The translations under genes and the position numbers were made by a program. This document shows, one piece after another, positions 2,520 to 20,119 of a stretch of DNA of 64,000 bases. The notes under the pieces are model-generated. The model saw only the letters and a list, made by a program, of their open reading frames with translations, was not told where the DNA came from and searched no databases. The stretch's first letter is position 1. Each line of letters begins with the position of its first letter. This DNA is from Planctomycetota bacterium. Lineage in GTDB: Bacteria; Planctomycetota; Phycisphaerae; WQYP01. Where the stretch lies: contig JAJZGD010000001.1 in the NCBI GenBank assembly GCA_021804985.1, positions 9,827 through 73,826 of the forward strand. Direction: 5' to 3'.

Positions 2520-5500
2520 CTATACCGACGCAGCTTCCATGGCCGGCCCCGCCGCCTGAAGGCGCGCCTTGCCATCAAATTTAACCGATACCCTGCGGCT
2601 CACACCCTGTTCCTGCATGGTGATTCCGTAGAGCAGATCCGCGACGGTCATCATACGCTTGTTATGCGTGATAACAACGAACTGGCTGTGGCCCAGAAAC
2701 TGCTGAATGATGGAGGCAAATCGGCCGGTGTTCGCCTCGTCGAGCGGGGCATCCACTTCATCCAGAATACAAAACGGCGAAGGCCGCGATTTAAATACCG
2801 CCAACACCAGTGCAATGGCGGTGAGTGCCTTTTCGCCGCCCGACATCAGGGATATGGATTGAAGTTCCTTGCCGGGGGGCCGGGCCAGAATTTCGATGCC
2901 ACTCTCCAGAACATCCTCCGGATTTTCTAATACCACATCCGCTTTTCCACCGCCGAACAAAAGCCGGAAAGTTTCCTGGAATTCCCCGCGCACGGCCTCA
3001 AAAGTCTGGGCAAATCGGACGCGTGAATCGTCGTTTATCTTGGCAATTAAATCCTCCAATTGCTTTTTGGCATCGAGAATATCGGTCATCTGGGCGGTTA
3101 AGAAGGCCTCGCGCGCTTCCAGCGTTTCAAGTTCCGCAACCGCATCGAGATTAACGTTGCCCAACCGGGCGATTTTGGCTTTTAACTCGGAAACCTCGTT
3201 GGCGGTGGCTTGCCAATCAACATCAGCGGGCGGCAGATATTGGCTGTGCGCTTCAACAAGATTGATCGACAATTCCTCACCGGTGCGCTCGACCAAGGTT
3301 TCAAGCCGAACGGAGGCTTCATTTTCAGCCAGTGAGAGTTCATGCTCATGCTTGATCACTCGATCGAGTTCGGACTGCCGGGCCGCCATATCCGACTGTA
3401 TTTCACTGCGCCGCAGATTTACGTCCGCCAGACGCGCCAGACACCCATCGACGCTTTCACGGGCGGTTTGATATTGCGCGCCGGCATTTTTAGCCTGCTG
3501 GGCAAAGTTCTGGGCCGCCTGCTGACTTTCCGCCGCCCTTTGCTGCACCGACACAAGTTCAAGATCCACCTGATTGAGGCGCCCTTGTGCTTCCTGATGA
3601 TTTTGCCGGGCAGCGCCCAGCTCACGCATAATGGCGGTGCGCTGCTCTTGAAGCCGGCCGAGATCGATGCGCAGGCTCGTCGCCCGCTCGCTTACCTTGG
3701 ATACGGCTTGGCGCTGGGTGTCAATATCCGCGGTAAAACTTTTGGCCTTCTCTTCGGCCGCCTGCCCCTGTGATTCCATGTCCGCAGCCTTCTGCTGCAG
3801 TTGCTCCTGCTGCTGCTGACATTTGGCAGATTGCTGCTCCAACCCGGCTTGTTCAAGTTCCAGCAGCGGAAGTTCCGCCGCGATACGCTCCGCGTCATTG
3901 TGTGCTGCGGACAACTTGGCGCCGAGGCGGATGGATTCATTTTGCATTTGGAGATGGCGGTCGCGGCGGCTTCTCAGCATGCTTGCATTCTCAGCCGCCT
4001 TCTGGTCGATGAGGGCCAATTGCTTCTGGAACTCCGCAACTTCCTGTTCCACCGCGGATACCTGACTGGCCAATTGCGCCAGTTCGCTGCGGCGCGCGAT
4101 GGTTCCGGTCGCCTGGCCCCCGCGGCCTAAGGTAAGCAGGCCACCGGCCCGCAGCAGTTCACCATCCTGAATAACATACTGAAAGCCCGGCTTGCTTCGC
4201 GCATGATCGCGGGCCTGCGCCAGTGTTTCGGCGACCAACGTTCGGCCGAGCAGATATTCGACAAGGGGTTGAAATTCTGGTGAGCAGCGAGCCCAATCCA
4301 GCAGCCGCGGCAATTGCCCCCCCGCCACGGCCTGCCCGGAATTCGCGGGCGTTGCGCTGGCGATAGCGGCCGATTCTGATTCGGTTGCGGCTGGTAGCTG
4401 ATCGAGAAACCAGACATGAATTCGCCCGGAGAGCGCCCGCAGCCGATCAAAATCATCCCCCAGCCGATCCATGCTGTCGAAGACCAACGCGCTGGCGAGA
4501 TCGCCCAGGGCAATTTCGATGAGCTTGGCGTGCGGCAAATCCGCGTCGATCAGATCGGAAAGCACACCGCGCAGCGATGGATAAGCCGTTCCAGCTTCGC
4601 GGGCTTTAAGAATTTCCTTAACCGGTGCGGATACCCCTTCCTTGCGGCTTTGGAGTTCCTTAAGCACATTGGTCCGGCTGAGCAGCCCCGATCGCAATTC
4701 CCTCGCCTGCGAAAGTTTTTCCGATACCGCCGCCTGCTGGATATTATTCGTGGATCGGTCGGCCTCCAGCGCGTTAATCTCCGTCATATCCTGCGACAAC
4801 TGCGCTTCGATCTGCGACTTCTGTGCGTCCATCGTGACGATATCCTGCGAGGCGGCGGCCTGGCGTTCGACAATCGCCTGCCGCTTCGCCTGCAAATGCA
4901 TAAGTTGTCGAGACAGGTTTTCCCGCTGCACATCCAAACCCGAGAGTTGATTGCGAATGACGGCGACCTGGCGCAAAAGATCAACCGCCTCAAGTTTCAT
5001 TTTTTCGGAAGCCCGAATAATTTCGCCCAGCCGCGTGTTTTCAGCTTCCAGTTGTTCAGTCACCTGCTTGAGCGCATCTTGAACCTGGGACGCCTGATTC
5101 TCAGCCGAGGCGACCGAGCGGCTTTGCACTTCTATCGCATCGCTGAGGCCGGTCATTCGCAACTGAATATCCGATCGTCGGTCTTGCAGCAGCTTGTGCT
5201 GCTCCTGGAGTTGCAGATGCTGTTGATTGGCGAACTGCGTCTGCTGCAGAAACGATTGATGCTGATTTTCGGTTTGAGATAAGGTGCGCTCCGCCTGACG
5301 GACGGCGTCCTGCGCGGCGTTAAAGTCCAACTGCAAATCATTATATTCCACCTGCCGACCGTCCATTTCGCGGCGCTTGAGCGAAAGTAAATCGGCCGCA
5401 TCGGCGTGATCGCTGTTGAGTGTCATGAGGCGCTGATGCATCTGATGAAAATCAAATAGCACCTGCATGCGGCGGAGGTCAAGCAGCCGGGCTTCATATT

Positions 5501-8542: not shown

Positions 8543-8920
8543 TCATTTCGCAGGGAAATGGCATCGAATAACCGAACGCAGGCCGCCGCGGGGTGTCCAT
8601 TGGCTGATAACTTCGAGGCGGCGCGGCTTGAGGACGGCCATCAAGTCATCAAAAATGACATTGGTAACGTCCTCATAAAAGATGCCGCGATTTCGATAAG
8701 CCTGCAGATACATTTTCAGGCTTTTCAGTTCAACGCAGCATTGGTCCGGCACATAAATGAAGGTGAAGGTGCCAAAATCAGGCTGGCCGGTCTTGGGGCA
8801 TACGGAAGTAAATTCCGATGCGAAATGCTCAATTTCATAATCTCGGTGGGGATGCGGATTAATAAAAGTTTCTAACATCGCCGCTCCGGCCGTCGCCTTA
8901 ATCACCGTTTTTTTTGCCAT
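8543..8920 (-). CDS. queF: NADPH-dependent 7-cyano-7-deazaguanine (preQ0) reductase
   Basis: QueF signature [14 protein letters not shown] and C-terminal TPRGG; ATG at 8920 preceded by GGAAGTGAG; alternative GTG start at 8959. Confidence 0.85.
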
Positions 8921-9012
8921 TGTGCTCACTTCCAGGGGTTCAACTAAATGAAATTCCACCGCGACACCATTTTAACGCCACCGCTGGCTATTTTGCGATG
9001 CATCGGCCGCGC

Positions 9013-9708
9013 TCAGGTGCCCCGGCGATTTCCGTAAAGCCAAATATGCAGGCGAGATCCAAACCGATACCCCTTGTCGCGGCAGATGTCCGCCAGCCAC
9101 ACCGCACGCTCATGCAGCGTTTTATCGTCAATTCCCTCCGGCATCAAAATTACATCGTCCCGGCGAATATTTCCAAGGCTGGCCATGAGCGATTCAATTT
9201 CAACCATGTCCGAAGGATTCGTCACGACAAATTTCCATTGTCGATCGGCGATCCGCGGTGCGCCGGCGAACCGCTGCAACACAGGAATATTTATGCGACG
9301 CTCGTCATGAAGAGCCGCCCAATTGCCCTCCGCAGAAACGCCCGGCGATGAATTCGCAAGTTTGGGGCTTATGCTCGCCAAGTCCGCTGCGACGTCTTGC
9401 CAAATGGTTCCGGCGGTCTCGATCGTGATGTGGCAACCGATCTGCTTCAAGCCGGTGATCAGCTGCGATAGCTCCTGCTGGATCAGTGGCTCACCACCGG
9501 TGAGCACCACATGCCGCAGTGAAAGCTGCTTTACCCGATCGATCAATTCATTCACAGCCGTGTCCGTTCCCTCCGGCCGCCAAGATGCATACGGCGTATC
9601 GCACCAACCGCATCGAAGGTTGCACCCGGAGGTGCGAATGAAAACGCTCGGCACGCCCGTTAGCTTCCCCTCTCCCTGAATGCTGGCAAAGACTTCCGCG
9701 ATCTTCAT
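9013..9708 (-). CDS. queE: 7-carboxy-7-deazaguanine synthase (radical SAM)
   Basis: N-terminus [14 protein letters not shown] and radical-SAM cysteine cluster [11 protein letters not shown]; start codon overlaps queC stop (ATGA). Confidence 0.85.
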
Positions 9709-10430
9709 GCGCCGTCGACCCCGACGGGGGCATAGGCGATGGGATCGGCCACGCCGACCTGGGCGAACGCTTCGAGCCGAAGCTTGCAGGCATCGCACCG
9801 GCCGCAGCTGTGGGCATCATCGGGTGGGTCGTAACATGAAAAAGTGCTGGCATAATCAACGCCCAGTTGCAAACCCGCACGGATGATGTTCGCCTTTCGC
9901 ATTTCAATAAGCGGGGTGCGAAGCTTAATGGTTCGATGATCGGCCACGCCAGCTTTGGTAGCGAGCGCCGCTAATTTTTCAAATGCCGCGATGAACTCGG
10001 GCCGACAATCCGGATAGCCGGAGTAGTCCAGGGCATTTACCCCCAGATAAATATCATCGGCGTCAAGCACCTCGGCCCATCCCAGCGCGCAGGATAAAAA
10101 TATGGTGTTGCGCGCCGGAACATACGTCACCGGAATGTCCCTGGATATCGCCTCCGGCGCCCGATCTTTAGGCACCTGGATGTCGCCGGTCAGCGCCGAA
10201 CCGCCAAACTGCTGTAAATCAAGTTTCAAAATTACATGACGCCGAACGGCGGGATGCTTTGCCAGTTTGGCGGCGGATTGCAGTTCCCGCCGGTGACGTT
10301 GGCCGTAGTCGAAACTTAACGCGTAACAGGCATATCCGTCGGCGGCGGCCATGGCCAAAACCGTTGCAGAATCCAAACCACCACTTAACAGCACGACGGC
10401 AGGTTTCAATTTCGATGCTCCAATTCGCAT
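9705..10430 (-). CDS. queC: 7-cyano-7-deazaguanine synthase
   Basis: N-terminal PP-loop [13 protein letters not shown] and C-terminal zinc-binding cysteines (CGRCDAC). Confidence 0.9.
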
Positions 10431-10836
10431 GCGATAGTTTATAAGCCTTCGACGACGGAGTCACTCGGCGGCGCGGCCGGAGAAGGCGCACGCATCGACG
10501 CCCGCTGCCATTGCGGATAACACGCTTCAGCGGTCGGCGGTAGCCTGCACCCATCGCGACGGCCGTGGCCTTCAATGAAGATTTTGCCCATTGAATCGAC
10601 CGGGGCGCGTGGCTCTATTTCCGGGCAACACGGCCGTGCGGGGAAACTTCACATAGCCGCCGACCTGCCGGTGGTGGAACGCACCATAAAAGCACCCCGA
10701 CAGGCCGGAACCAGACGGTGCGATGTGCCCCTGATTTAGCGTTGTTTCGGCGCTGCCCGGAAGAATTGCCACGCCGATTGCCGGAAGGATCGTAATCGCC
10801 GTTGCAATTATTGATAATGTTTGATAACCTTGTGCA

Positions 10837-11034
10837 ATGTCGATTGTCAGCAGGAAAAAGCTTGGAGAATTCTTGACGGTAAATGAGGCTGCGATGTACC
10901 TTGGAGTCTCGGCCTCTACCTTACGAAACTGGGATCGTACAGGTAAGCTTAAAGCTCAGCGGCATCCGATTAATGGTTACCGACTCTATAGCCGCCGCGG
11001 TCTCGATCGCGTGCTCAAGCCACTGAGGATTTGA
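10837..11034 (+). CDS. small MerR/excisionase-type HTH DNA-binding protein, candidate controller of the adjacent RM system
   Basis: 65 aa; HTH pattern LTVNEAAMYLGVSASTLRNWDRTGKL typical of HTH_17/Xis-MerR-like domains; ends 4 bp before the methyltransferase start. Confidence 0.6.
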   Translation: MSIVSRKKLGEFLTVNEAAMYLGVSASTLRNWDRTGKLKAQRHPINGYRLYSRRGLDRVLKPLRI

Positions 11035-11038
11035 CGCC

Positions 11039-12013
11039 ATGAAATACGAATCGCCACCTCTGTCACAATTTGCGTTCGATTACGAATCTAAGCGGATCGG
11101 CAAGTCACTAATTGTGCATGCGGATTGTCTGGAATGGCTGGGTCGCGTGCCGAAGGACACTTTGCACGGAATCGTAACGGACCCGCCGTACGGGGTAAAG
11201 GAATACGATTTTGATCAATTGGAAAAGCGGGCCAACGGTAACGGCGGCGTCTGGCGTATCCCACCTTCATTTGATGGGCATACCCGTGCACCGCTGCCAC
11301 GGTTTACGGCGCTCGATGGACAGGATCGCATGCGATTGAGCCGGTTCTTCACGGAATGGGCACGCGCGGCAGGCCACGCATTGCGACCCGGAGGGCATGT
11401 GTTCATTGCCACAAATGCCTTCTTGGCACCGTTGATGTATTCGGCCCTTATGGCCGGTGGGTTGGAATTTCGCGGACAGATTATTCGCCTGGTGCGAACA
11501 CTCCGGGGCGGTGACCGTCCGAAGAATGCGGAGGTGGAATTTCCCGGGGTGTCGTCCCTGCCCCGTGGATGCTATGAGCCATGGGGCTTGTTCCGCAAAC
11601 CGATGTTGCTTGGAATGAAAGTCAGTGACTGCCTCCGTGAATTCCAGACCGGCGGCTTGCGACGGACTAAAGATGATCTACCGTTTTCCGACACAATTTC
11701 GAGCGGCCGGACGCCGCGCCGCGAAAGACTTATAGCGAATCATCCGAGCCTCAAACCCCAATCATTCTTGCGCCAGATCGTCCGCGCATCGTTGCCGATG
11801 GGAGTAGGCGTTGTGGCAGATCCGTTCGCTGGGTCAGGCTCCACGGTAGCGGCCGCAGAGGCGGTTGGCGCGTGGGCGATTGGTGTTGAGCGTTTCGCCG
11901 ACTATTTCGAAATGGCGCAGGATGCCATTCCACGACTGGCAAAGCTGAAACTGGACGAGAAGGCCACCGAGGAGATTGGAGCGAGAGAGTCCCAGTCGTT
12001 ACTTTTTGGTTGA
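11039..12013 (+). CDS. Type II DNA methyltransferase, beta-class N6-adenine or N4-cytosine specific
   Basis: motif IV IVTDPPYG near the N-terminus, AdoMet motif I DPFAGSGST near the C-terminus (beta-class circular permutation), HPSLKPQSFLRQIV segment typical of the N6_N4_Mtase family. Confidence 0.85.
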   Translation: MKYESPPLSQFAFDYESKRIGKSLIVHADCLEWLGRVPKDTLHGIVTDPPYGVKEYDFDQLEKRANGNGGVWRIPPSFDGHTRAPLPRFTALDGQDRMRLSRFFTEWARAAGHALRPGGHVFIATNAFLAPLMYSALMAGGLEFRGQIIRLVRTLRGGDRPKNAEVEFPGVSSLPRGCYEPWGLFRKPMLLGMKVSDCLREFQTGGLRRTKDDLPFSDTISSGRTPRRERLIANHPSLKPQSFLRQIVRASLPMGVGVVADPFAGSGSTVAAAEAVGAWAIGVERFADYFEMAQDAIPRLAKLKLDEKATEEIGARESQSLLFG

Positions 12014-12688
12014 TTGGACGGGCTGGGGTTTGCCGCGAGCACGGTAAATCCAATTGGCTTCCATTTTTTCGAAGCCAGTGCGCATCACGCTTGCCGTTAT
12101 GGTACGGCGGCTGGTGGCCAATCTGCCGGAGAAATTCCAATCCGATTTGGTGATTTTGGCTCCGATGACCTTGACAAATTGGAAGGGCCTAAAGGCGAGT
12201 CCCCTCGTGGCGTCGCGGGGTGCGCTACTATCGAAAACAAACACCATGAGCCACACATTTTCGGGGTTGTGGCCCTGCCAGCCGCTGGGGCGGCGGGAGG
12301 CCTTGATTTCAATCCCTCGGTCAGCGTGAAGGCAGGCGCCGTTTGCATATACGCCAATCGGGATGAGATCGGGGTGGCCGTTGTGAAAGCGGTTCTTGAT
12401 CAAGCCGGGGCAATGTTTCGGAATAGCCGCCGCCAGGAATTCACTTACGATACTGCTAAAATTTGCAGGCATCAGGAATAATTCGAGGGGATCCATGCCC
12501 TTAGAAACCAGGGAACGGTTGATCAGATGTAGGAAAGCGAGAAAATCTTGCATTGCTTTTTTGACGTCCAGCGTGCCTAGGCCGTACGGAAGCTGACACT
12601 CGCGGTTAAACCCTTGTTGGTTGAGGCCGATGGGCACGGCTGTTTTTTTTGAAAGTTTTGCAGCTGGCATGGCGGTAAAATACTCCAT
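11999..12688 (-). CDS. putative Type II restriction endonuclease (PD-(D/E)xK candidate)
   Basis: 229 aa with no recognisable family; contains GHPDLIP...(20 aa)...GIEIKAS matching a PD-x(n)-(D/E)xK nuclease core; convergent with and overlapping the methyltransferase 3' end by 15 bp. Confidence 0.45.
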   Translation of the reverse strand: MEYFTAMPAAKLSKKTAVPIGLNQQGFNRECQLPYGLGTLDVKKAMQDFLAFLHLINRSLVSKGMDPLELFLMPANFSSIVSEFLAAAIPKHCPGLIKNRFHNGHPDLIPIGVYANGACLHADRGIEIKASRRPSGWQGHNPENVWLMVFVFDSSAPRDATRGLAFRPFQFVKVIGAKITKSDWNFSGRLATSRRTITASVMRTGFEKMEANWIYRARGKPQPVQSTKK

Positions 12689-12859
12689 TGACTTTGGCGG
12701 GTCAATTTGTTGGGGTTAGTGTCAGCCGATCGGCCCGCTGATTTCCGCAGCGACGGTTATCGATGCGACATAAAAACAGTACAATTCGGAAAACGTGGGC
12801 GAAGGGCGCAGCGGAGCGATTGGGCCGCCGGCAATAATGTGTTTCAGGAGCATTGAAAG

Positions 12860-14584: not shown

Positions 14585-15883
14585 CTACTTCTGGGGTACC
14601 AAAGCCGTTCGGCCATCAACGAAATAGGCATGCTTACGTGCCAGGCATTGCTGGCGGAGGGCGGAAATTTTATGCGGGGCGGCAAATTTTAATTCGGGCA
14701 CCCATTTGATCATCGCCCGCGCACGATGCTCAAATTCGCGGCGAAGTGCCGGTTGCTTATTTCTCGGAGAATCAATCCAGACTGTGACGTGATCGGCGCC
14801 AAGCGCGTCGGAGGTGGCGTGCACCAGAAACTCGCCGGTGGCGGCAAAAGATCGCGCCAAATCAGCGAGTGCGGAAGCAAACGTCGATACCCCTTGCACT
14901 TTTAATAATTGGGCGGCTCGTCCGAGCACAGGTCCCAAGCGCGGGGTCTGGCGGCCACATGGGCACACGCCCCGATAAAGCGCAGCGATGTCGCCGGTGT
15001 CGTAGCGTAAAAGAGGCATGGCATCCTGCTTGAAAGGCGTTATGACGACGCGTCCCGGTGTGCCCGAAGCGCACGGTTGATCGGCGGCATCGAGAATTTC
15101 GACCATTCCCAGATGGGGATTAACATGGCCACCATCGCATTGGGGGCCTTGCGCCAATGTCGTGCAGGTTTCAGTGGTGGCGTATGTTGAAAGGAGCGGC
15201 GCCGATACGCAATGCATCAGGCTTTGGCTGAGTATATTGGGCGATAGGCTCGCATCGCGCAGGGGCTCGCCGATGCAAATAACGGCGGCCAGGTTTCGGG
15301 GCAACTTCAAACCACGCGAACACCAGGCAGCCAGCAAAGATGGGACGGCAATGAGAAACCAGCGGCCGCCAGGCTTGAGTGGGCGTTGGTGAAGCGTTTG
15401 AAAATCAGCCATGGCAGGGCCCATTCGCAAGCACGTTGCGCCGAGCCGCTGCGCACCGAGCCAATACGCCAACCCCGCCACAAACAAACGGTCCATGCCC
15501 ACACCAATGAGAACCCCGTCGCCGCGACGAATGCCGGCGAGGGCGAAGGCGGCCGCTTCATTTTCAGCCAGTCGGTTCAGGTCGCGCTCAGCCAGTGCGA
15601 TATGCACCGGCGAGCCTGTGGTTCCAGAGGTTGTTACCCATTCGCGGATAGCGGCAGCCGGCACGGCGAGAAAATCCAATCCATGGTTCACTAAATCGAT
15701 TTTTGTGGTTGTCGGCAGATTGGGAAATACTTTGGCGGCAGCCGCAGCCGATAGGGTCGGCAGGCCAATTCGCCTCAGATAAAATGGGGCCTTCAAGGCG
15801 TGTCGCATTTGCGCAAGCAGCAATGCATTGATGGCGGCGGTTTTTCGCGATTGGCGCCCCGCGCTGCGAATGTCTTTATGCAA
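14585..15883 (-). CDS. adenylate-forming acyl/aryl-CoA ligase, phenylacetate-CoA ligase (PaaK) / coenzyme F390 synthetase family
   Basis: AMP-binding motifs [13 protein letters not shown] and RYDTGD with the domain spacing typical of PaaK-like ligases. Confidence 0.7.
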
Positions 15884-15910: not shown

Positions 15911-18900
15911 TTATGGTGTTTTGGCCAGTCGCAGATATCGCCGAAGCGCCACACGTCTTGCCCGATATGGCGGATCCAGCAAAAGCGTTTTGGTTAAAAG
16001 GATTGCAGCCCGCTTTTTGCGACCCATGGCCAAATCGGCGCGGCCCGCTAGTTCATACGCGGAAAAGAAATCAGGATCATATTGCAATGCCACCATGGCT
16101 TTATGGTAGGCCAGCTTAAAATGGTTCTTGGCGAGGGCATGGTAGCCGGAATGCAGCGCCGCTCGGGCTATCTCAAAGCGATGCCAGCCGCCCGAAACTA
16201 AAAAATGGTCCGCGGGAATGGATGGCAAGAGAACTTTTGCGAGCGGCGGTGGCTCTTTAGAAAGCATGGGTAGCACCTTTACGCCGATATAGGCGCCTTC
16301 GGCATAGGGCCACGCCGCCACCCACAGTTCTCCGTTGGTTAAGTTCATAATGACCGAATGCGTAGCGATGAGCGCATCAATCGCATTCCGATTGCCGTAG
16401 CCGATAAACCGGCCATGCACGCTGGCTTTGTCTCTTAAAAGCTTCGCCAGATTAATCGCATTAACTTTTCCGCGCATGGCATTGATCAGCCGCAGGGCGC
16501 GTGCCATGCGAAACCGCGATGTAGATTGGCGGATTCGCGCTGCATTAACAGGATCGTTCCGAAATACCGGTGCGGTAAATTGATTGGCCACGGCGGCCCG
16601 CTGATCGACGTGAATCACGGCGCAATGCAGCGGCGATTTTTCAATGATTATGCATTGACCGGTTTTGCCGTCGCCCACCACAATGCTGTCGGCCACAAAC
16701 ACCGGCGCACGCCGGAAGATGGATACGGCTTGTGAAAGGCTGTGAGCAAACTGCAGCACCTGTCGCGCGACAATAATCGTCGGCTCACCGATCGGCTTAA
16801 AGCCGACCGTCGCGGCAGCATTGATAAACAAACCTATCTTCTCGCTATTAAAGCCGGTAACACAGCCGCTAAGCCCCGGCCACGCGACGGTCACAAAGCC
16901 GTACCCATGTGAGGGGCGAACGAAGGTGATACTTTTCTGCCGGTTAAAAGCCGGGCCGCCTTCAAAGTCAAAATTTCGGGCGAGCCATAGACAATTATCC
17001 CCCGACCACGCCGGGCACGCCGCAACGCCGGTACAGCCAACGGCGTGCGCATCAATCAGAGGGTTATCAATCAGGTTTTGAGATATGTCGTCGAGTGCTT
17101 CATAAGACAGCAGCCGCGCATAAGTAGGACTCAAATAGGCGTGTAAATCGGGATGCGAACGCGACTCGGCATAGACTTCATGGCGGATATAGGCGGGGAT
17201 ATAATGCGGCAGCCTAAGCATATCCAGTGCCACGCCGCGGGTGATGACCCACTGCGCCCAGAGTGATGGCACAAAATGATGCAATTGATCGAGCATGTCA
17301 TTTTCGATCTCGGTATCGACCGGGGCGCCCAGTGCACCGTCATCGTAGCCCAGTGTGCCCGATGAGCCGCCAACGGACATCACCCACACGCCGTGAACTC
17401 GGCGCATCCACGCATGACCAATTTTCCAACTATTCGGGCCGGTCTGCGTAACGGTGCGGTGCTGGGGCAATCGAACGGCCTTATCAGGGCGTGCGCTAGC
17501 CATCAGCAGTTGTCCGATGCATACCACCAGCATGGCCAGCGCCGCAGCCGCAGCGGCGATCCGAATCAGCCAAAGCAGCGCGGACTCGGGCACGCGTCGC
17601 CAGCTGCGGCAACCGCGGCAACGGTTATTAACGGTATGGCAGCACCAGCGCACGAATGGCCCAACGCAGAGCAATGCCGCAAGGTATCCGCCGCAGATTC
17701 CCGCCACGAGCGTAAGCCCCACCCAATGCAATGCCGGGTGAGCAGCCAGAATAATTGCACCCGAGCCTAATATGGTGGTCAGGGCGCAGATGCCGGTGGT
17801 AAGAATGCGCGGTGATGGTTTATCGGTGCGAAGTGCCGGATCGCTGGCGGTATAGACGCCGTAATCAATGGCGACACCCATGGTAAACAGCAGGGGTATC
17901 ATGGCGAGAAAATTCAGCCCCCCACCAATCCATTGCGCCACGCCTGCCAGCCAGATGAACCCGACCAACAGCGAAAGGGATGCGGCCGCCGCGATTTCCA
18001 ATCGGCGAAAATAGATGCAAACCGGCAAGAAAATGGCCAGGAACACCCAGGGAAAAAGGAACTCCGTCTGGGCCTTGGATTGCTGCGTAGCATTAAACAG
18101 CAGCGCGCTGCCATCAACGAGCAGTACGTGGGGAAATAGCAGTTCAATTTCGGAGGTCCAATCGGTTTGCATTCGCGGCGAGAGTTTGCGATTGGGATAG
18201 ACCACAGTCGCGAGGTAGTGGTGGCTGCGGATTTGAAATACTTGGCCAGGAAAAAGACTTAATGGTGAGTTGCGCAGCCGCGTCGGCGCAGCAAACTGCG
18301 TTGCACGGTGAAAAAACAAAGTGCTTTGCAATGACGGAGCGCGAAAGCCCTGGCGGCTTGCAGCGATTTTCAGGCGTGCATCGATGGCCGCAATCCGTGA
18401 GGCCGTCCAGAAATGCTGCCATCGGGCGATACGCCGGTTAAGCCGCCGGGTGTCCGGCAGCAGGTTGGAAGGTGAAATAAATCCGCCAATCAATTTTTCC
18501 CGCTTCATTCGCGCCAGATCGCTCTGGAGCATCTGCGTTTGCTTAAGCAGTTTGCCGGCACTTCGGCTGCGGGTAATAACCACTCCATGGTGGGCGCTGT
18601 TGCCCCATACTTTAAAAAAGCCTTGCTGCGCGGCCGTTTGTGCCGGGGACGCCCCATTTAAATCGGCGGGGTTAATGTTGTAGTGGAGTTTGGCGGCCTG
18701 CAGCAACAAAAAACTTGTCACGACGGAAAATGCGATAAATGCCACCCAGCGCACCCACCGCGGCAGAGCGAACTGTATTTCGATCGCACGTCGGGGACGA
18801 CAAAACTCGGAGAGATAGGCGGGCAGAATCAGGAACGTAACAAGCCATATCAGCAGCGTGCCCATCGCGATAAATAAACCCATCGCTCGCAGGCCGGGCG

Positions 18901-20119
18901 CCGTGCAGAACGCCAGCGCTCCATAGCCGGTGATGCTGGTCAGAGCGCTCATCGTAATAGGGCCAAACAGCGACCGTGCTGCGACCGCCGCCTCATTGGT
19001 ATGGCTGCCTGGCAACGGAGAGCGAGAACGGCCGTAGGCACCGAGTATTTGAATGCCATAATCAGTCGTAGCGCCAAGAATTAAGCCGGAGAAGGCTAAA
19101 ATCATCAGCGGCAGGTGCGCGCCCGTCAGACCCGATAGCCCCAGCGCCGTGCCAAGCCCCACCACCGGTGGCAGCATGCAGATAAGAAGCGTGCCGATCC
19201 GACGAAAATAGAACCAAATGACAGCCGCCACCAACAGCGTTCCAATGATGGAGACCACGGCAACATCGCGCTTGATTTGGGCGGCATTTTGGACGTACTG
19301 AGTGTAAGGGCCGATGATCCAAAAATGCACATGCGGATAGCGCCGCTGAATGCTCGCGGTTACCGACGAAAGCTGGTTTAGCATTTGCGCGGCGAGCCGC
19401 GTTTGCTGCGGCGAAAACGTCGGCGATAAAACGATCATCGCATGGGTGCGATTTTTGGCCATCAGCAGGCCACCGTTCATGGCCAGATGCGAAATGTTCA
19501 GCGGTGTGGCCGCATTTGCCGATTGCAGTTGCCGGTAAAGCAAGGTGCGGATCGCGAGAGGATCAGTCGTAAGGTTTGACAGATCGAGCAAACCCCCGGG
19601 GGCTTCAAGCCGTTCATGAATGTCGGCAAAGTGCTTCTGCATCCAAGGATCGCCGGTGCGAGCCTTAAGTTTTTGAAAGGATCGACGTGTCAGCAAGGCA
19701 GGAATATCCGCCGTAATGGTGCGTTGGGCCCGATTGAGCGCCGGCAGCGATACGCCATCCCAAAGTGTGCCAAAGATGGGATGCTTACGAAGCGCAGCCG
19801 CCATGGCCCGTACCGCGGAGGGCAATTGCTTTTTAAATTGCGGTTTGGTGTGCAGATCGATATGGAGCGAATCGGCAAGCTGCGGCAATGCGGATATCTG
19901 CCGCCAGGACTGCACCTGTCGGCTGTTTTGCGAAAAAAACAGCAGGACGTTGGTTTGCCAGTGGATGGCGGTGGAAGCGGCTGCGCAAAGCACGGCCGCA
20001 ACAACGAGAAACGCGGAAAGCCATCGGCGGTGGCGCCCCAAAAAGCCGTACCAATGTGCCATCAGTATTAGCAGCGGATCGCGATTTTGGCCGGCGCCCG
20101 GCGCGGCAGGCTCAATCAT
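15911..20119 (-). CDS. fusion protein: MMPL/RND-type exporter (12 TM with two large periplasmic loops) + extra TM + Ntn-hydrolase C45 acyltransferase-like domain + C-terminal TPR repeats
   Basis: two 6-TM bundles (approx aa 285-440 and 690-830) separated by soluble loops as in MMPL/HpnN exporters; Cys-rich linker WCCHTVNNRCRGCRSW; 13th TM (aa 850-870); soluble domain with HAVG|CTGVAACPAWSGDNCLWLARNFDFEGG resembling the Gly-Cys autoproteolytic/nucleophile site of C45 acyl-CoA:6-APA acyltransferase/choloylglycine-hydrolase-type Ntn enzymes; TPR-like tail aa 1300-1402. Confidence 0.6.
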   Translation of the reverse strand: MIEPAAPGAGQNRDPLLILMAHWYGFLGRHRRWLSAFLVVAAVLCAAASTAIHWQTNVLLFFSQNSRQVQSWRQISALPQLADSLHIDLHTKPQFKKQLPSAVRAMAAALRKHPIFGTLWDGVSLPALNRAQRTITADIPALLTRRSFQKLKARTGDPWMQKHFADIHERLEAPGGLLDLSNLTTDPLAIRTLLYRQLQSANAATPLNISHLAMNGGLLMAKNRTHAMIVLSPTFSPQQTRLAAQMLNQLSSVTASIQRRYPHVHFWIIGPYTQYVQNAAQIKRDVAVVSIIGTLLVAAVIWFYFRRIGTLLICMLPPVVGLGTALGLSGLTGAHLPLMILAFSGLILGATTDYGIQILGAYGRSRSPLPGSHTNEAAVAARSLFGPITMSALTSITGYGALAFCTAPGLRAMGLFIAMGTLLIWLVTFLILPAYLSEFCRPRRAIEIQFALPRWVRWVAFIAFSVVTSFLLLQAAKLHYNINPADLNGASPAQTAAQQGFFKVWGNSAHHGVVITRSRSAGKLLKQTQMLQSDLARMKREKLIGGFISPSNLLPDTRRLNRRIARWQHFWTASRIAAIDARLKIAASRQGFRAPSLQSTLFFHRATQFAAPTRLRNSPLSLFPGQVFQIRSHHYLATVVYPNRKLSPRMQTDWTSEIELLFPHVLLVDGSALLFNATQQSKAQTEFLFPWVFLAIFLPVCIYFRRLEIAAAASLSLLVGFIWLAGVAQWIGGGLNFLAMIPLLFTMGVAIDYGVYTASDPALRTDKPSPRILTTGICALTTILGSGAIILAAHPALHWVGLTLVAGICGGYLAALLCVGPFVRWCCHTVNNRCRGCRSWRRVPESALLWLIRIAAAAAALAMLVVCIGQLLMASARPDKAVRLPQHRTVTQTGPNSWKIGHAWMRRVHGVWVMSVGGSSGTLGYDDGALGAPVDTEIENDMLDQLHHFVPSLWAQWVITRGVALDMLRLPHYIPAYIRHEVYAESRSHPDLHAYLSPTYARLLSYEALDDISQNLIDNPLIDAHAVGCTGVAACPAWSGDNCLWLARNFDFEGGPAFNRQKSITFVRPSHGYGFVTVAWPGLSGCVTGFNSEKIGLFINAAATVGFKPIGEPTIIVARQVLQFAHSLSQAVSIFRRAPVFVADSIVVGDGKTGQCIIIEKSPLHCAVIHVDQRAAVANQFTAPVFRNDPVNAARIRQSTSRFRMARALRLINAMRGKVNAINLAKLLRDKASVHGRFIGYGNRNAIDALIATHSVIMNLTNGELWVAAWPYAEGAYIGVKVLPMLSKEPPPLAKVLLPSIPADHFLVSGGWHRFEIARAALHSGYHALAKNHFKLAYHKAMVALQYDPDFFSAYELAGRADLAMGRKKRAAILLTKTLLLDPPYRARRVALRRYLRLAKTP

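Follow-up and report, generated by a model that had tools for sequence, protein, structure and literature searches.

The window, a stretch of 64,000 nucleotides from a Planctomycetota bacterium (contig JAJZGD010000001.1 of assembly GCA_021804985.1), was found to carry a small gene module in which a putative Type II restriction endonuclease gene (R) runs convergent with a DNA methyltransferase gene (M), the latter being preceded by a gene for a small helix-turn-helix (HTH) protein. An open reading frame (ORF) of 229 codons with an ATG start was read from the window sequence at 11999..12688 on the minus strand, in agreement with the initial annotation, which had listed the ORF at these positions. 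Its start was moved to Met7 (ATG at 12670-12668). This start is shared by the homologs and by a 223-residue protein called on identical metagenomic contigs, and therefore the R gene probably covers 11999..12670 (minus strand, 223 residues), while the maximal ORF extends to 12688. Residues are numbered below according to the 229-residue ORF.

The M gene was located at 11039..12013 on the plus strand and encodes a beta-class N6/N4 DNA methyltransferase of 324 residues (Pfam PF01555, 4.8e-16; PADLOC MTase_II PDLC03215, 3.1e-98). The convergent position of R, overlapping the methyltransferase gene at the 3' end, had also been pointed out in the initial annotation. Reading of the sequence confirmed it, as the two ORFs share 15 bp (11999-12013) and both stop codons lie inside this overlap.

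The module is placed between queC and an aldo-keto reductase gene, with the housekeeping genes queC/E/F forming one flank and the reductase gene the other. Its guanine-cytosine content of 0.51-0.59, against 0.48-0.61 in the flanks, gave no sign of a recent acquisition. The identical module was found again on several independent contigs.

Catalytic motif and predicted fold of the R protein

The codons GGC CAC CCC GAT CTC ATC CCG were read as G-H105-P106-D107-L-I-P, with D107 at 12370-12368, and GGG ATT GAA ATC AAG as G-I-E127-I-K129, with E127 at 12310-12308 and K129 at 12304-12302; the spacing from D107 to E127 is 20 residues. The whole catalytic motif, H105-P106-D107 ... E127-I-K129, covers 12302..12376 on the minus strand and was assigned from its conservation and from strands 108-110 and 126-131 of the structural model. 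An Asp in HPDLIP followed by EIK about 20 residues later, with beta-strand-like segments around both, had been the basis of the initial annotation. Both observations proved correct: the residues are near-invariant in the family, and the AlphaFold2 model places the two motifs at or in these strands.

Among 32 close homologs 61 columns were invariant, including H105, P106, D107, E127, K129, the WQGHN block, D183-W184 and S193-RRTITA. E83, located on the helix before the sheet, was invariant in the close homologs as well and is a candidate third acidic residue. When 39 diverse members of the family (27-69% identity) were compared, nine columns were nearly invariant, namely a Pro of the N-terminal region, N99, G104, P106, D107, G125, E127, K129 and D183. 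Since the P, D, E and K residues are among these nine, the PD...ExK signature constitutes the core of the family conservation. Out of 226 family proteins with a length of 190 residues or more, 218 kept the pattern PD-x(10-35)-(E/D)xK, and the motif was absent or frameshift-like in a few family proteins (P0150, P0243).

The AlphaFold2 model, built from the alignment of 32 sequences, had a mean predicted local distance difference test score (pLDDT) of 86.5 and a predicted template modelling score (pTM) of 0.85. It consists of long helices 39-62 and 74-92, strands 96-98, 108-110, 126-131, 138-140 and 146-153, a short helix 157-161 and then strands 170-178, 184-187 and 198-201. The predicted structure has the alpha-beta-beta-beta-alpha-beta core that the initial annotation had named as a check, with a central mixed beta-sheet flanked by helices. 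P106-D107 stands directly before the second strand (108-110), and the third (126-131) contains E127-x-K129. PD-(D/E)xK membership is marked by a (P)D where strand 2 begins and by a (D/E)xK in strand 3, and in the model the positions of D107, E127 and K129 are the canonical ones.

The fold-comparison figures were 7.2 for SwaI, 6.7 for both ThaI and SfiI, 6.5 for BglI, 6.1 for NhoI, 6.0 for EcoRV, 5.4 for NlaIV, 5.3 for both DpnI and PvuII, 5.2 for HincII and 4.5 for MspI. The best fold matches NaeI, SfiI, BglI, EcoRV and HincII are members of class IV (H2-H1-S-down, EcoRV-like) as defined by Niv et al. 2007 (PMC1874628), a class whose enzymes leave blunt ends or 3' overhangs. In the EcoRV-like class the elements follow the order H2-H1-S1-S2-S3-S4-S5 and the fifth strand is antiparallel to the first; the comparison with the model covered the element order, which fits. 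Judged by the model, this single-domain protein is predicted to be a PD-(D/E)xK nuclease and probably belongs to the EcoRV/NaeI-like structural class, and the analogy with this class suggests that its cuts leave blunt or 3'-overhang ends. In a viral fold library only unnamed proteins were matched.

The likeness to known enzymes was structural: no sequence similarity was detectable to EcoRV, SfiI, BglI and HincII, nor to SwaI, ThaI, NlaIV, PvuII and DpnI. The endonuclease domain of NaeI (PDB 1EV7/1IAW; Type IIE, GCC/GGC) shares 9% identity with the window protein, which was not matched by the Pfam family RE_NaeI. NaeI has in addition a C-terminal DNA-binding (effector) domain (Endo + Topo/CAP), whereas the window protein of 223 residues is single-domain and lacks it. 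Furthermore, the NaeI system uses a C5 methyltransferase, in contrast to the beta-class N6/N4 enzyme of the window module.

The segment of residues 183-200 (DW..SGR..SRRTITAS; nt ~12089-12142, minus strand) runs from D183-W ... S-G-R into the S193-RRTITAS loop and was recorded as a putative DNA-recognition region at 12116..12142. The pLDDT is lower there, at 60-75. Among the diverse members the loop differs by subfamily, SRRT.TAS versus GTRTATL, with the catalytic core unchanged. Because its sequence varies from one subfamily to another and the active site stays the same, the segment is likely the recognition element.

Distribution of the family and its methyltransferase partners

An orphan fold had been suggested in the initial annotation, and this part did not hold. 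More than 3,370 homologous proteins were obtained at E<=1e-3 by a word-indexed protein search, at least 516 stretches were confirmed by tblastn in one genome per Genome Taxonomy Database (GTDB) species, the fold itself is a standard one, and the protein has a remote sequence link to a known endonuclease cluster, PADLOC REase_II PDLC03564. Such numbers of homologs show that the R ORF is no chance ORF. The 120 matches listed had 56-71% identity to the window protein, except for its own 100% copy, and wherever the source gave them a name it was "hypothetical protein". When 1.84 billion representatives were searched exhaustively with a profile, 628 clusters at 50% identity were obtained, of which 104 had E<=1e-30, and some distant clusters are named 'Restriction endonuclease' in UniRef.

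The gene was found in Planctomycetota, Chloroflexota, Cyanobacteria, Acidobacteriota, Nitrospirota, Armatimonadota, Verrucomicrobiota, Bacillota and delta- and gamma-proteobacteria, with cultured Methylomonas isolates among the carriers in the GTDB species search. The distribution is patchy and the identity across phyla is 54-68%, pointing to horizontal spread under strong constraint; the patchy spread fits horizontally mobile restriction-modification (R-M) genes. No homolog was found in the phage sequence collection.

PDLC03564 was matched by 31 of the 39 diverse members, which matched no other restriction endonuclease model (best E 5e-11). The matches were partial and collinear, covering profile positions 20-109 and 185-244, that is, an N-terminal and a C-terminal stretch. 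Hence, the family appeared to be a remote sister of this REBASE-derived cluster; the profile matches indicate remote homology, with the window protein outside the modelled cluster. The family resembles the PADLOC pair PDLC03564/PDLC03215 both in these collinear matches and in the fit of its methyltransferase to PDLC03215. No relevant Pfam or NCBIfam model was matched by the 39 diverse members, and two family profiles detected nothing among PDB sequences. Matches to cresol methylhydroxylase, which came up when the window protein and the two family profiles were searched against Pfam, NCBIfam and PDB, were dismissed as chance-level.

In the M protein the DPPY sequence (motif IV, residues 48-51) is N-terminal to the motif I FAGSGS (~residues 262-267; DPFAGSGST). 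This order of motif IV before motif I defines the protein as beta-class, and CcrM, M.RsrI, M.MboIIA and DpnA are its relatives in PDB. DPPY is seen more typically in N6-adenine than in N4-cytosine methyltransferases.

The genomic association was counted in 80 species loci (L011-L090). A homologous M gene (60-82% identity) was convergent with R, at or near the R 3' end, in 75 of them, the two genes being separated by anything from -8 nt to about 170 nt, with M incomplete in some loci. Four further loci (L035, L056, L069 and L072), all from Planctomycetota labelled Schlesneria sp. and with R homologs 56-60% identical to the window protein, had a C5-cytosine methyltransferase (PF00145, 5.6e-66) in place of the beta-class enzyme, downstream of R and in tandem with it. 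This is partner swapping within one endonuclease family. Since a C5-cytosine methyltransferase protects some close R homologs, the recognition site probably contains a cytosine too. At L072 (5976-7070) an ORF of 107 residues without family matches was seen between the R homolog and the C5 methyltransferase. The one remaining locus, L048 (3942-5534), carries an intact R homolog with a transposase-like ORF of 293 residues, IS256/mutator-type by eye, in the place of M; this R gene may be an orphan or be decaying, or the arrangement may be an artefact of the assembly.

A gene-by-gene view of three independent genomic contexts showed different flanks in each. Relatives of 31-50% identity were also found on plasmids of Klebsiella, Mycobacterium avium, Gordonia, Rhizobium and Acidiphilium multivorum (pACMV5). 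On the M. avium plasmid M precedes R in tandem, while on pACMV5 an Xre-type HTH gene is followed by R, which is convergent with M. The partner methyltransferases of the window and of the Klebsiella, M. avium and Acidiphilium plasmid loci fit PDLC03215 at 1e-98 to 1e-113.

The Klebsiella pneumoniae plasmid NZ_CP040037.1 (L091; 4938 bp) is a 4.9-kb mobilizable ColE1-type replicon, on which a family member of 32% identity, annotated as hypothetical, is convergent with a DNA methyltransferase gene (2602-4322). This plasmid occurs widely among Klebsiella and further Enterobacterales, and 357 contigs, assigned to Klebsiella, Enterobacter, Salmonella, Serratia and E. coli, carried the protein. The pair has the look of a plasmid-borne R-M system that has gone unannotated in clinical Enterobacterales; in the literature on Col440I-type Klebsiella plasmids and R-M, no description of this distant plasmid relative was found.

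Interpretation and alternative readings

Three features were observed in silico, namely the fold, the conservation of the catalytic residues and the conserved presence of a methyltransferase partner. A putative endonuclease gene stands beside a DNA methyltransferase gene, as in Type II R-M systems, and this pairing is conserved across genomes. The nuclease family keeps its methyltransferase neighbour while gene order, methyltransferase class and replicon change, a pattern that is classic for restriction enzymes. It was concluded that the product of the ORF is very probably the restriction endonuclease in a small Type II R-M module on the chromosome, composed of an HTH-M unit convergent with R. 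The proposal of an R gene with a PD-(D/E)xK core, made in the initial annotation, was therefore retained on the grounds of the D107/E127/K129 conservation, the fold and the pairing.

We infer the following picture of catalysis, dimerisation, end type and site. D107, E127 and K129 would bind Mg2+ and activate water for phosphodiester hydrolysis, with E83 from the helix before the sheet possibly assisting. By analogy with the structural class, the enzyme would be a homodimeric, Mg2+-dependent Type IIP endonuclease cutting within a short, probably palindromic site and leaving ends that are probably blunt or 3'-protruding. The adjacent beta-class methyltransferase would methylate the same site and thus protect the host DNA.

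Several results weigh against this conclusion. The window protein had no significant match in Pfam, NCBIfam or PDB sequences, and PDLC03564, of which it is only a distant sister, was matched at no better than E 0.016-0.017 over 35 residues (76-110). The Foldseek template modelling (TM) scores were low, about 0.33. The resemblance in fold is therefore limited to the core; with the EcoRV-type enzymes (TM ~0.3) only the core superposes and the recognition elements are unrelated. E83, the first acidic residue, is replaced in some distant members among the 39. Finally, palindrome avoidance in 730 kb from 76 host loci singled out no site; nearly all 6-bp palindromes were depleted. The lowest were CTCGAG (0.38), GAGCTC (0.35), GTCGAC, TTCGAA and CTGCAG in the pooled loci, a set that holds no system-free control genomes, and the window alone was without statistical power.

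A decayed or silenced R gene was considered first among the alternatives. Such a gene would keep the fold and the motif without cleavage in the host, leaving the methyltransferase functionally solitary. R genes are often inactivated in genomes, and within the family the transposase in the place of M at L048 and the proteins P0150 and P0243 agree with such losses. In the window, however, the ORF is full-length with all family-invariant residues intact, the M gene is intact and full-length as well, and the same module recurs on several independent contigs; inactivity of this R gene was consequently judged unlikely.

It was regarded as still less probable that the PD-(D/E)xK nuclease has a role other than restriction beside its methyltransferase, such as repair or nicking in the manner of Vsr and MutH, homing, or the resolving of junctions. 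The Vsr/MutH-type repair reading was rejected on the genomic context and the ranking of matches, and so were the two readings that follow.

The least credible proposal was another methylation-linked defence system, similar to the methylation-associated defence system (MADS), or a modification-dependent nuclease (Type IV / IIM): the HTH protein does match PADLOC mad1 (1.1e-13) and, weakly, NCBIfam MADS1, and the methyltransferase weakly matches mad2 (9e-7), but the MTase_II fit of 3e-98 is far better, the HTH gene occurs in few of the family loci (13 of the 80), the flanks are housekeeping genes, no further genes of a multi-gene mad1-mad8 locus were found at this locus, and stable pairing with a methyltransferase of matching lineage is not expected of a modification-dependent enzyme.

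Putative regulation, neighbouring genes and significance of the family

For the putative Type II restriction endonuclease and its methyltransferase, a possible mode of regulation was considered next to the HTH gene. This gene (10837..11034, plus strand; 65 residues, MerR/excisionase-type; Pfam MerR 2e-10, HTH_17 7e-10) lies 4 nt upstream of M, and its homologs in the 13 species loci were always upstream of M. A putative promoter/operator element precedes it at 10802..10830 on the plus strand, composed of TTGCAA (10802-10807), a spacer of 17 nt and TAACCT (10825-10830), with the tandem repeat TGATAAtgTTTGATAA in and overlapping the spacer (TGATAATGTTTGATAA at 10812-10827). The arrangement TTGCAA, 17 nt, TAnnnT with tandem TGATAA-type repeats recurs upstream of HTH homologs from several phyla. 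No second copy of the exact tandem repeat was found in the window, and none upstream of R. Between the -10-like hexamer and the HTH ATG there are 6 nt, both in the window and in L011, L013 and L014, which suggests that the HTH-M transcript is leaderless and autoregulated.

We proposed that the tandem TGATAA repeats in the promoter of the HTH gene are probably bound by the HTH protein itself, which would thereby limit HTH-M transcription and is a probable autoregulator of the HTH-M operon. R would be transcribed from its own promoter. A sigma-70-like match upstream of R (12677..12705, minus strand; TTGACC, 17 nt, TATTTT) ends 6 nt before the Met7 ATG; the consensus scan gave 3 matches versus 1.6 expected in the scanned region, a weak indication of an R promoter. 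Since R and M converge with a 15-bp overlap, transcription from the two sides may interfere.

The C-protein R-M systems (PvuII, AhdI, Esp1396I) offer a comparison. As in these systems, a small HTH gene belongs to the module, and its promoter holds an operator made of conserved repeats. Leaderless mRNA has been described for C genes, which the possible leaderless HTH mRNA of the window resembles. However, the window HTH protein is MerR/excisionase-type, not Xre-type, its gene precedes M instead of R, no operator copy lies upstream of R, and the HTH gene is missing from most family loci. The window module lacks the arrangement of such systems, in which an Xre-type C gene precedes R and is accompanied by C-box operators, whereas the Acidiphilium plasmid relative has a classical Xre-type HTH gene directly upstream of R.

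An imperfect inverted repeat of 19 nt at 10761-10812 (84% complementary, 14-nt gap) was also considered as an operator. It was rejected because, unlike the TGATAA repeat, it is not conserved in related loci. The inverted repeat overlaps the -35-like hexamer of the HTH promoter.

In Anaerolinea-type loci of Chloroflexota (L004/L005, 7410-9321) a PhdYeFM-antitoxin-like gene was found upstream of M instead of the MerR-type HTH gene, and a DUF5131 gene and an AbiEii/DUF6036 nucleotidyltransferase-like gene come after it. The region looks like a small defence/toxin-antitoxin islet. This replacement, together with the presence of the HTH gene in so few loci, marks the regulator as an exchangeable accessory.

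Directly beside the R-M module, a queF-queE-queC cluster for 7-cyano-7-deazaguanine / preQ1 synthesis occupies 8543-10430 on the minus strand. As the stretch examined showed no tgt/dpdA-like gene, the cluster probably serves ordinary tRNA queuosine biosynthesis, not DNA 7-deazaguanine modification. Farther away, at 15911-20119 (minus strand), an ORF of 1402 residues combines an MMPL-type transporter region with a C-terminal acyl-CoA:6-aminopenicillanic acid (6-APA) acyltransferase-like domain (PF03417). This unusual fusion is unrelated to the module, and an AMP-binding enzyme gene (14585-15883) adjoins it.

It is a tentative possibility that this large unnamed endonuclease family holds an unassigned specificity and that the optional MerR/excisionase-type HTH protein is a new R-M controller. 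If this were true, the HTH protein, with its repeat operator in a possibly leaderless promoter, would throttle the methyltransferase rather than switch the endonuclease on. The understanding of R-M systems is left unchanged by the present analysis, which provides a useful annotation and no surprise. The family, with over 3,000 sequences, 628 clusters at 50% identity and at least 516 species, is named "hypothetical protein" in nearly all records and can be relabelled as putative Type II restriction endonucleases, EcoRV/NaeI-like, with named catalytic residues. Enzyme companies would find in it a well-populated family from which an enzyme can be cloned and its site determined, and defence-system finders would gain an R partner for many seemingly solitary methyltransferases.
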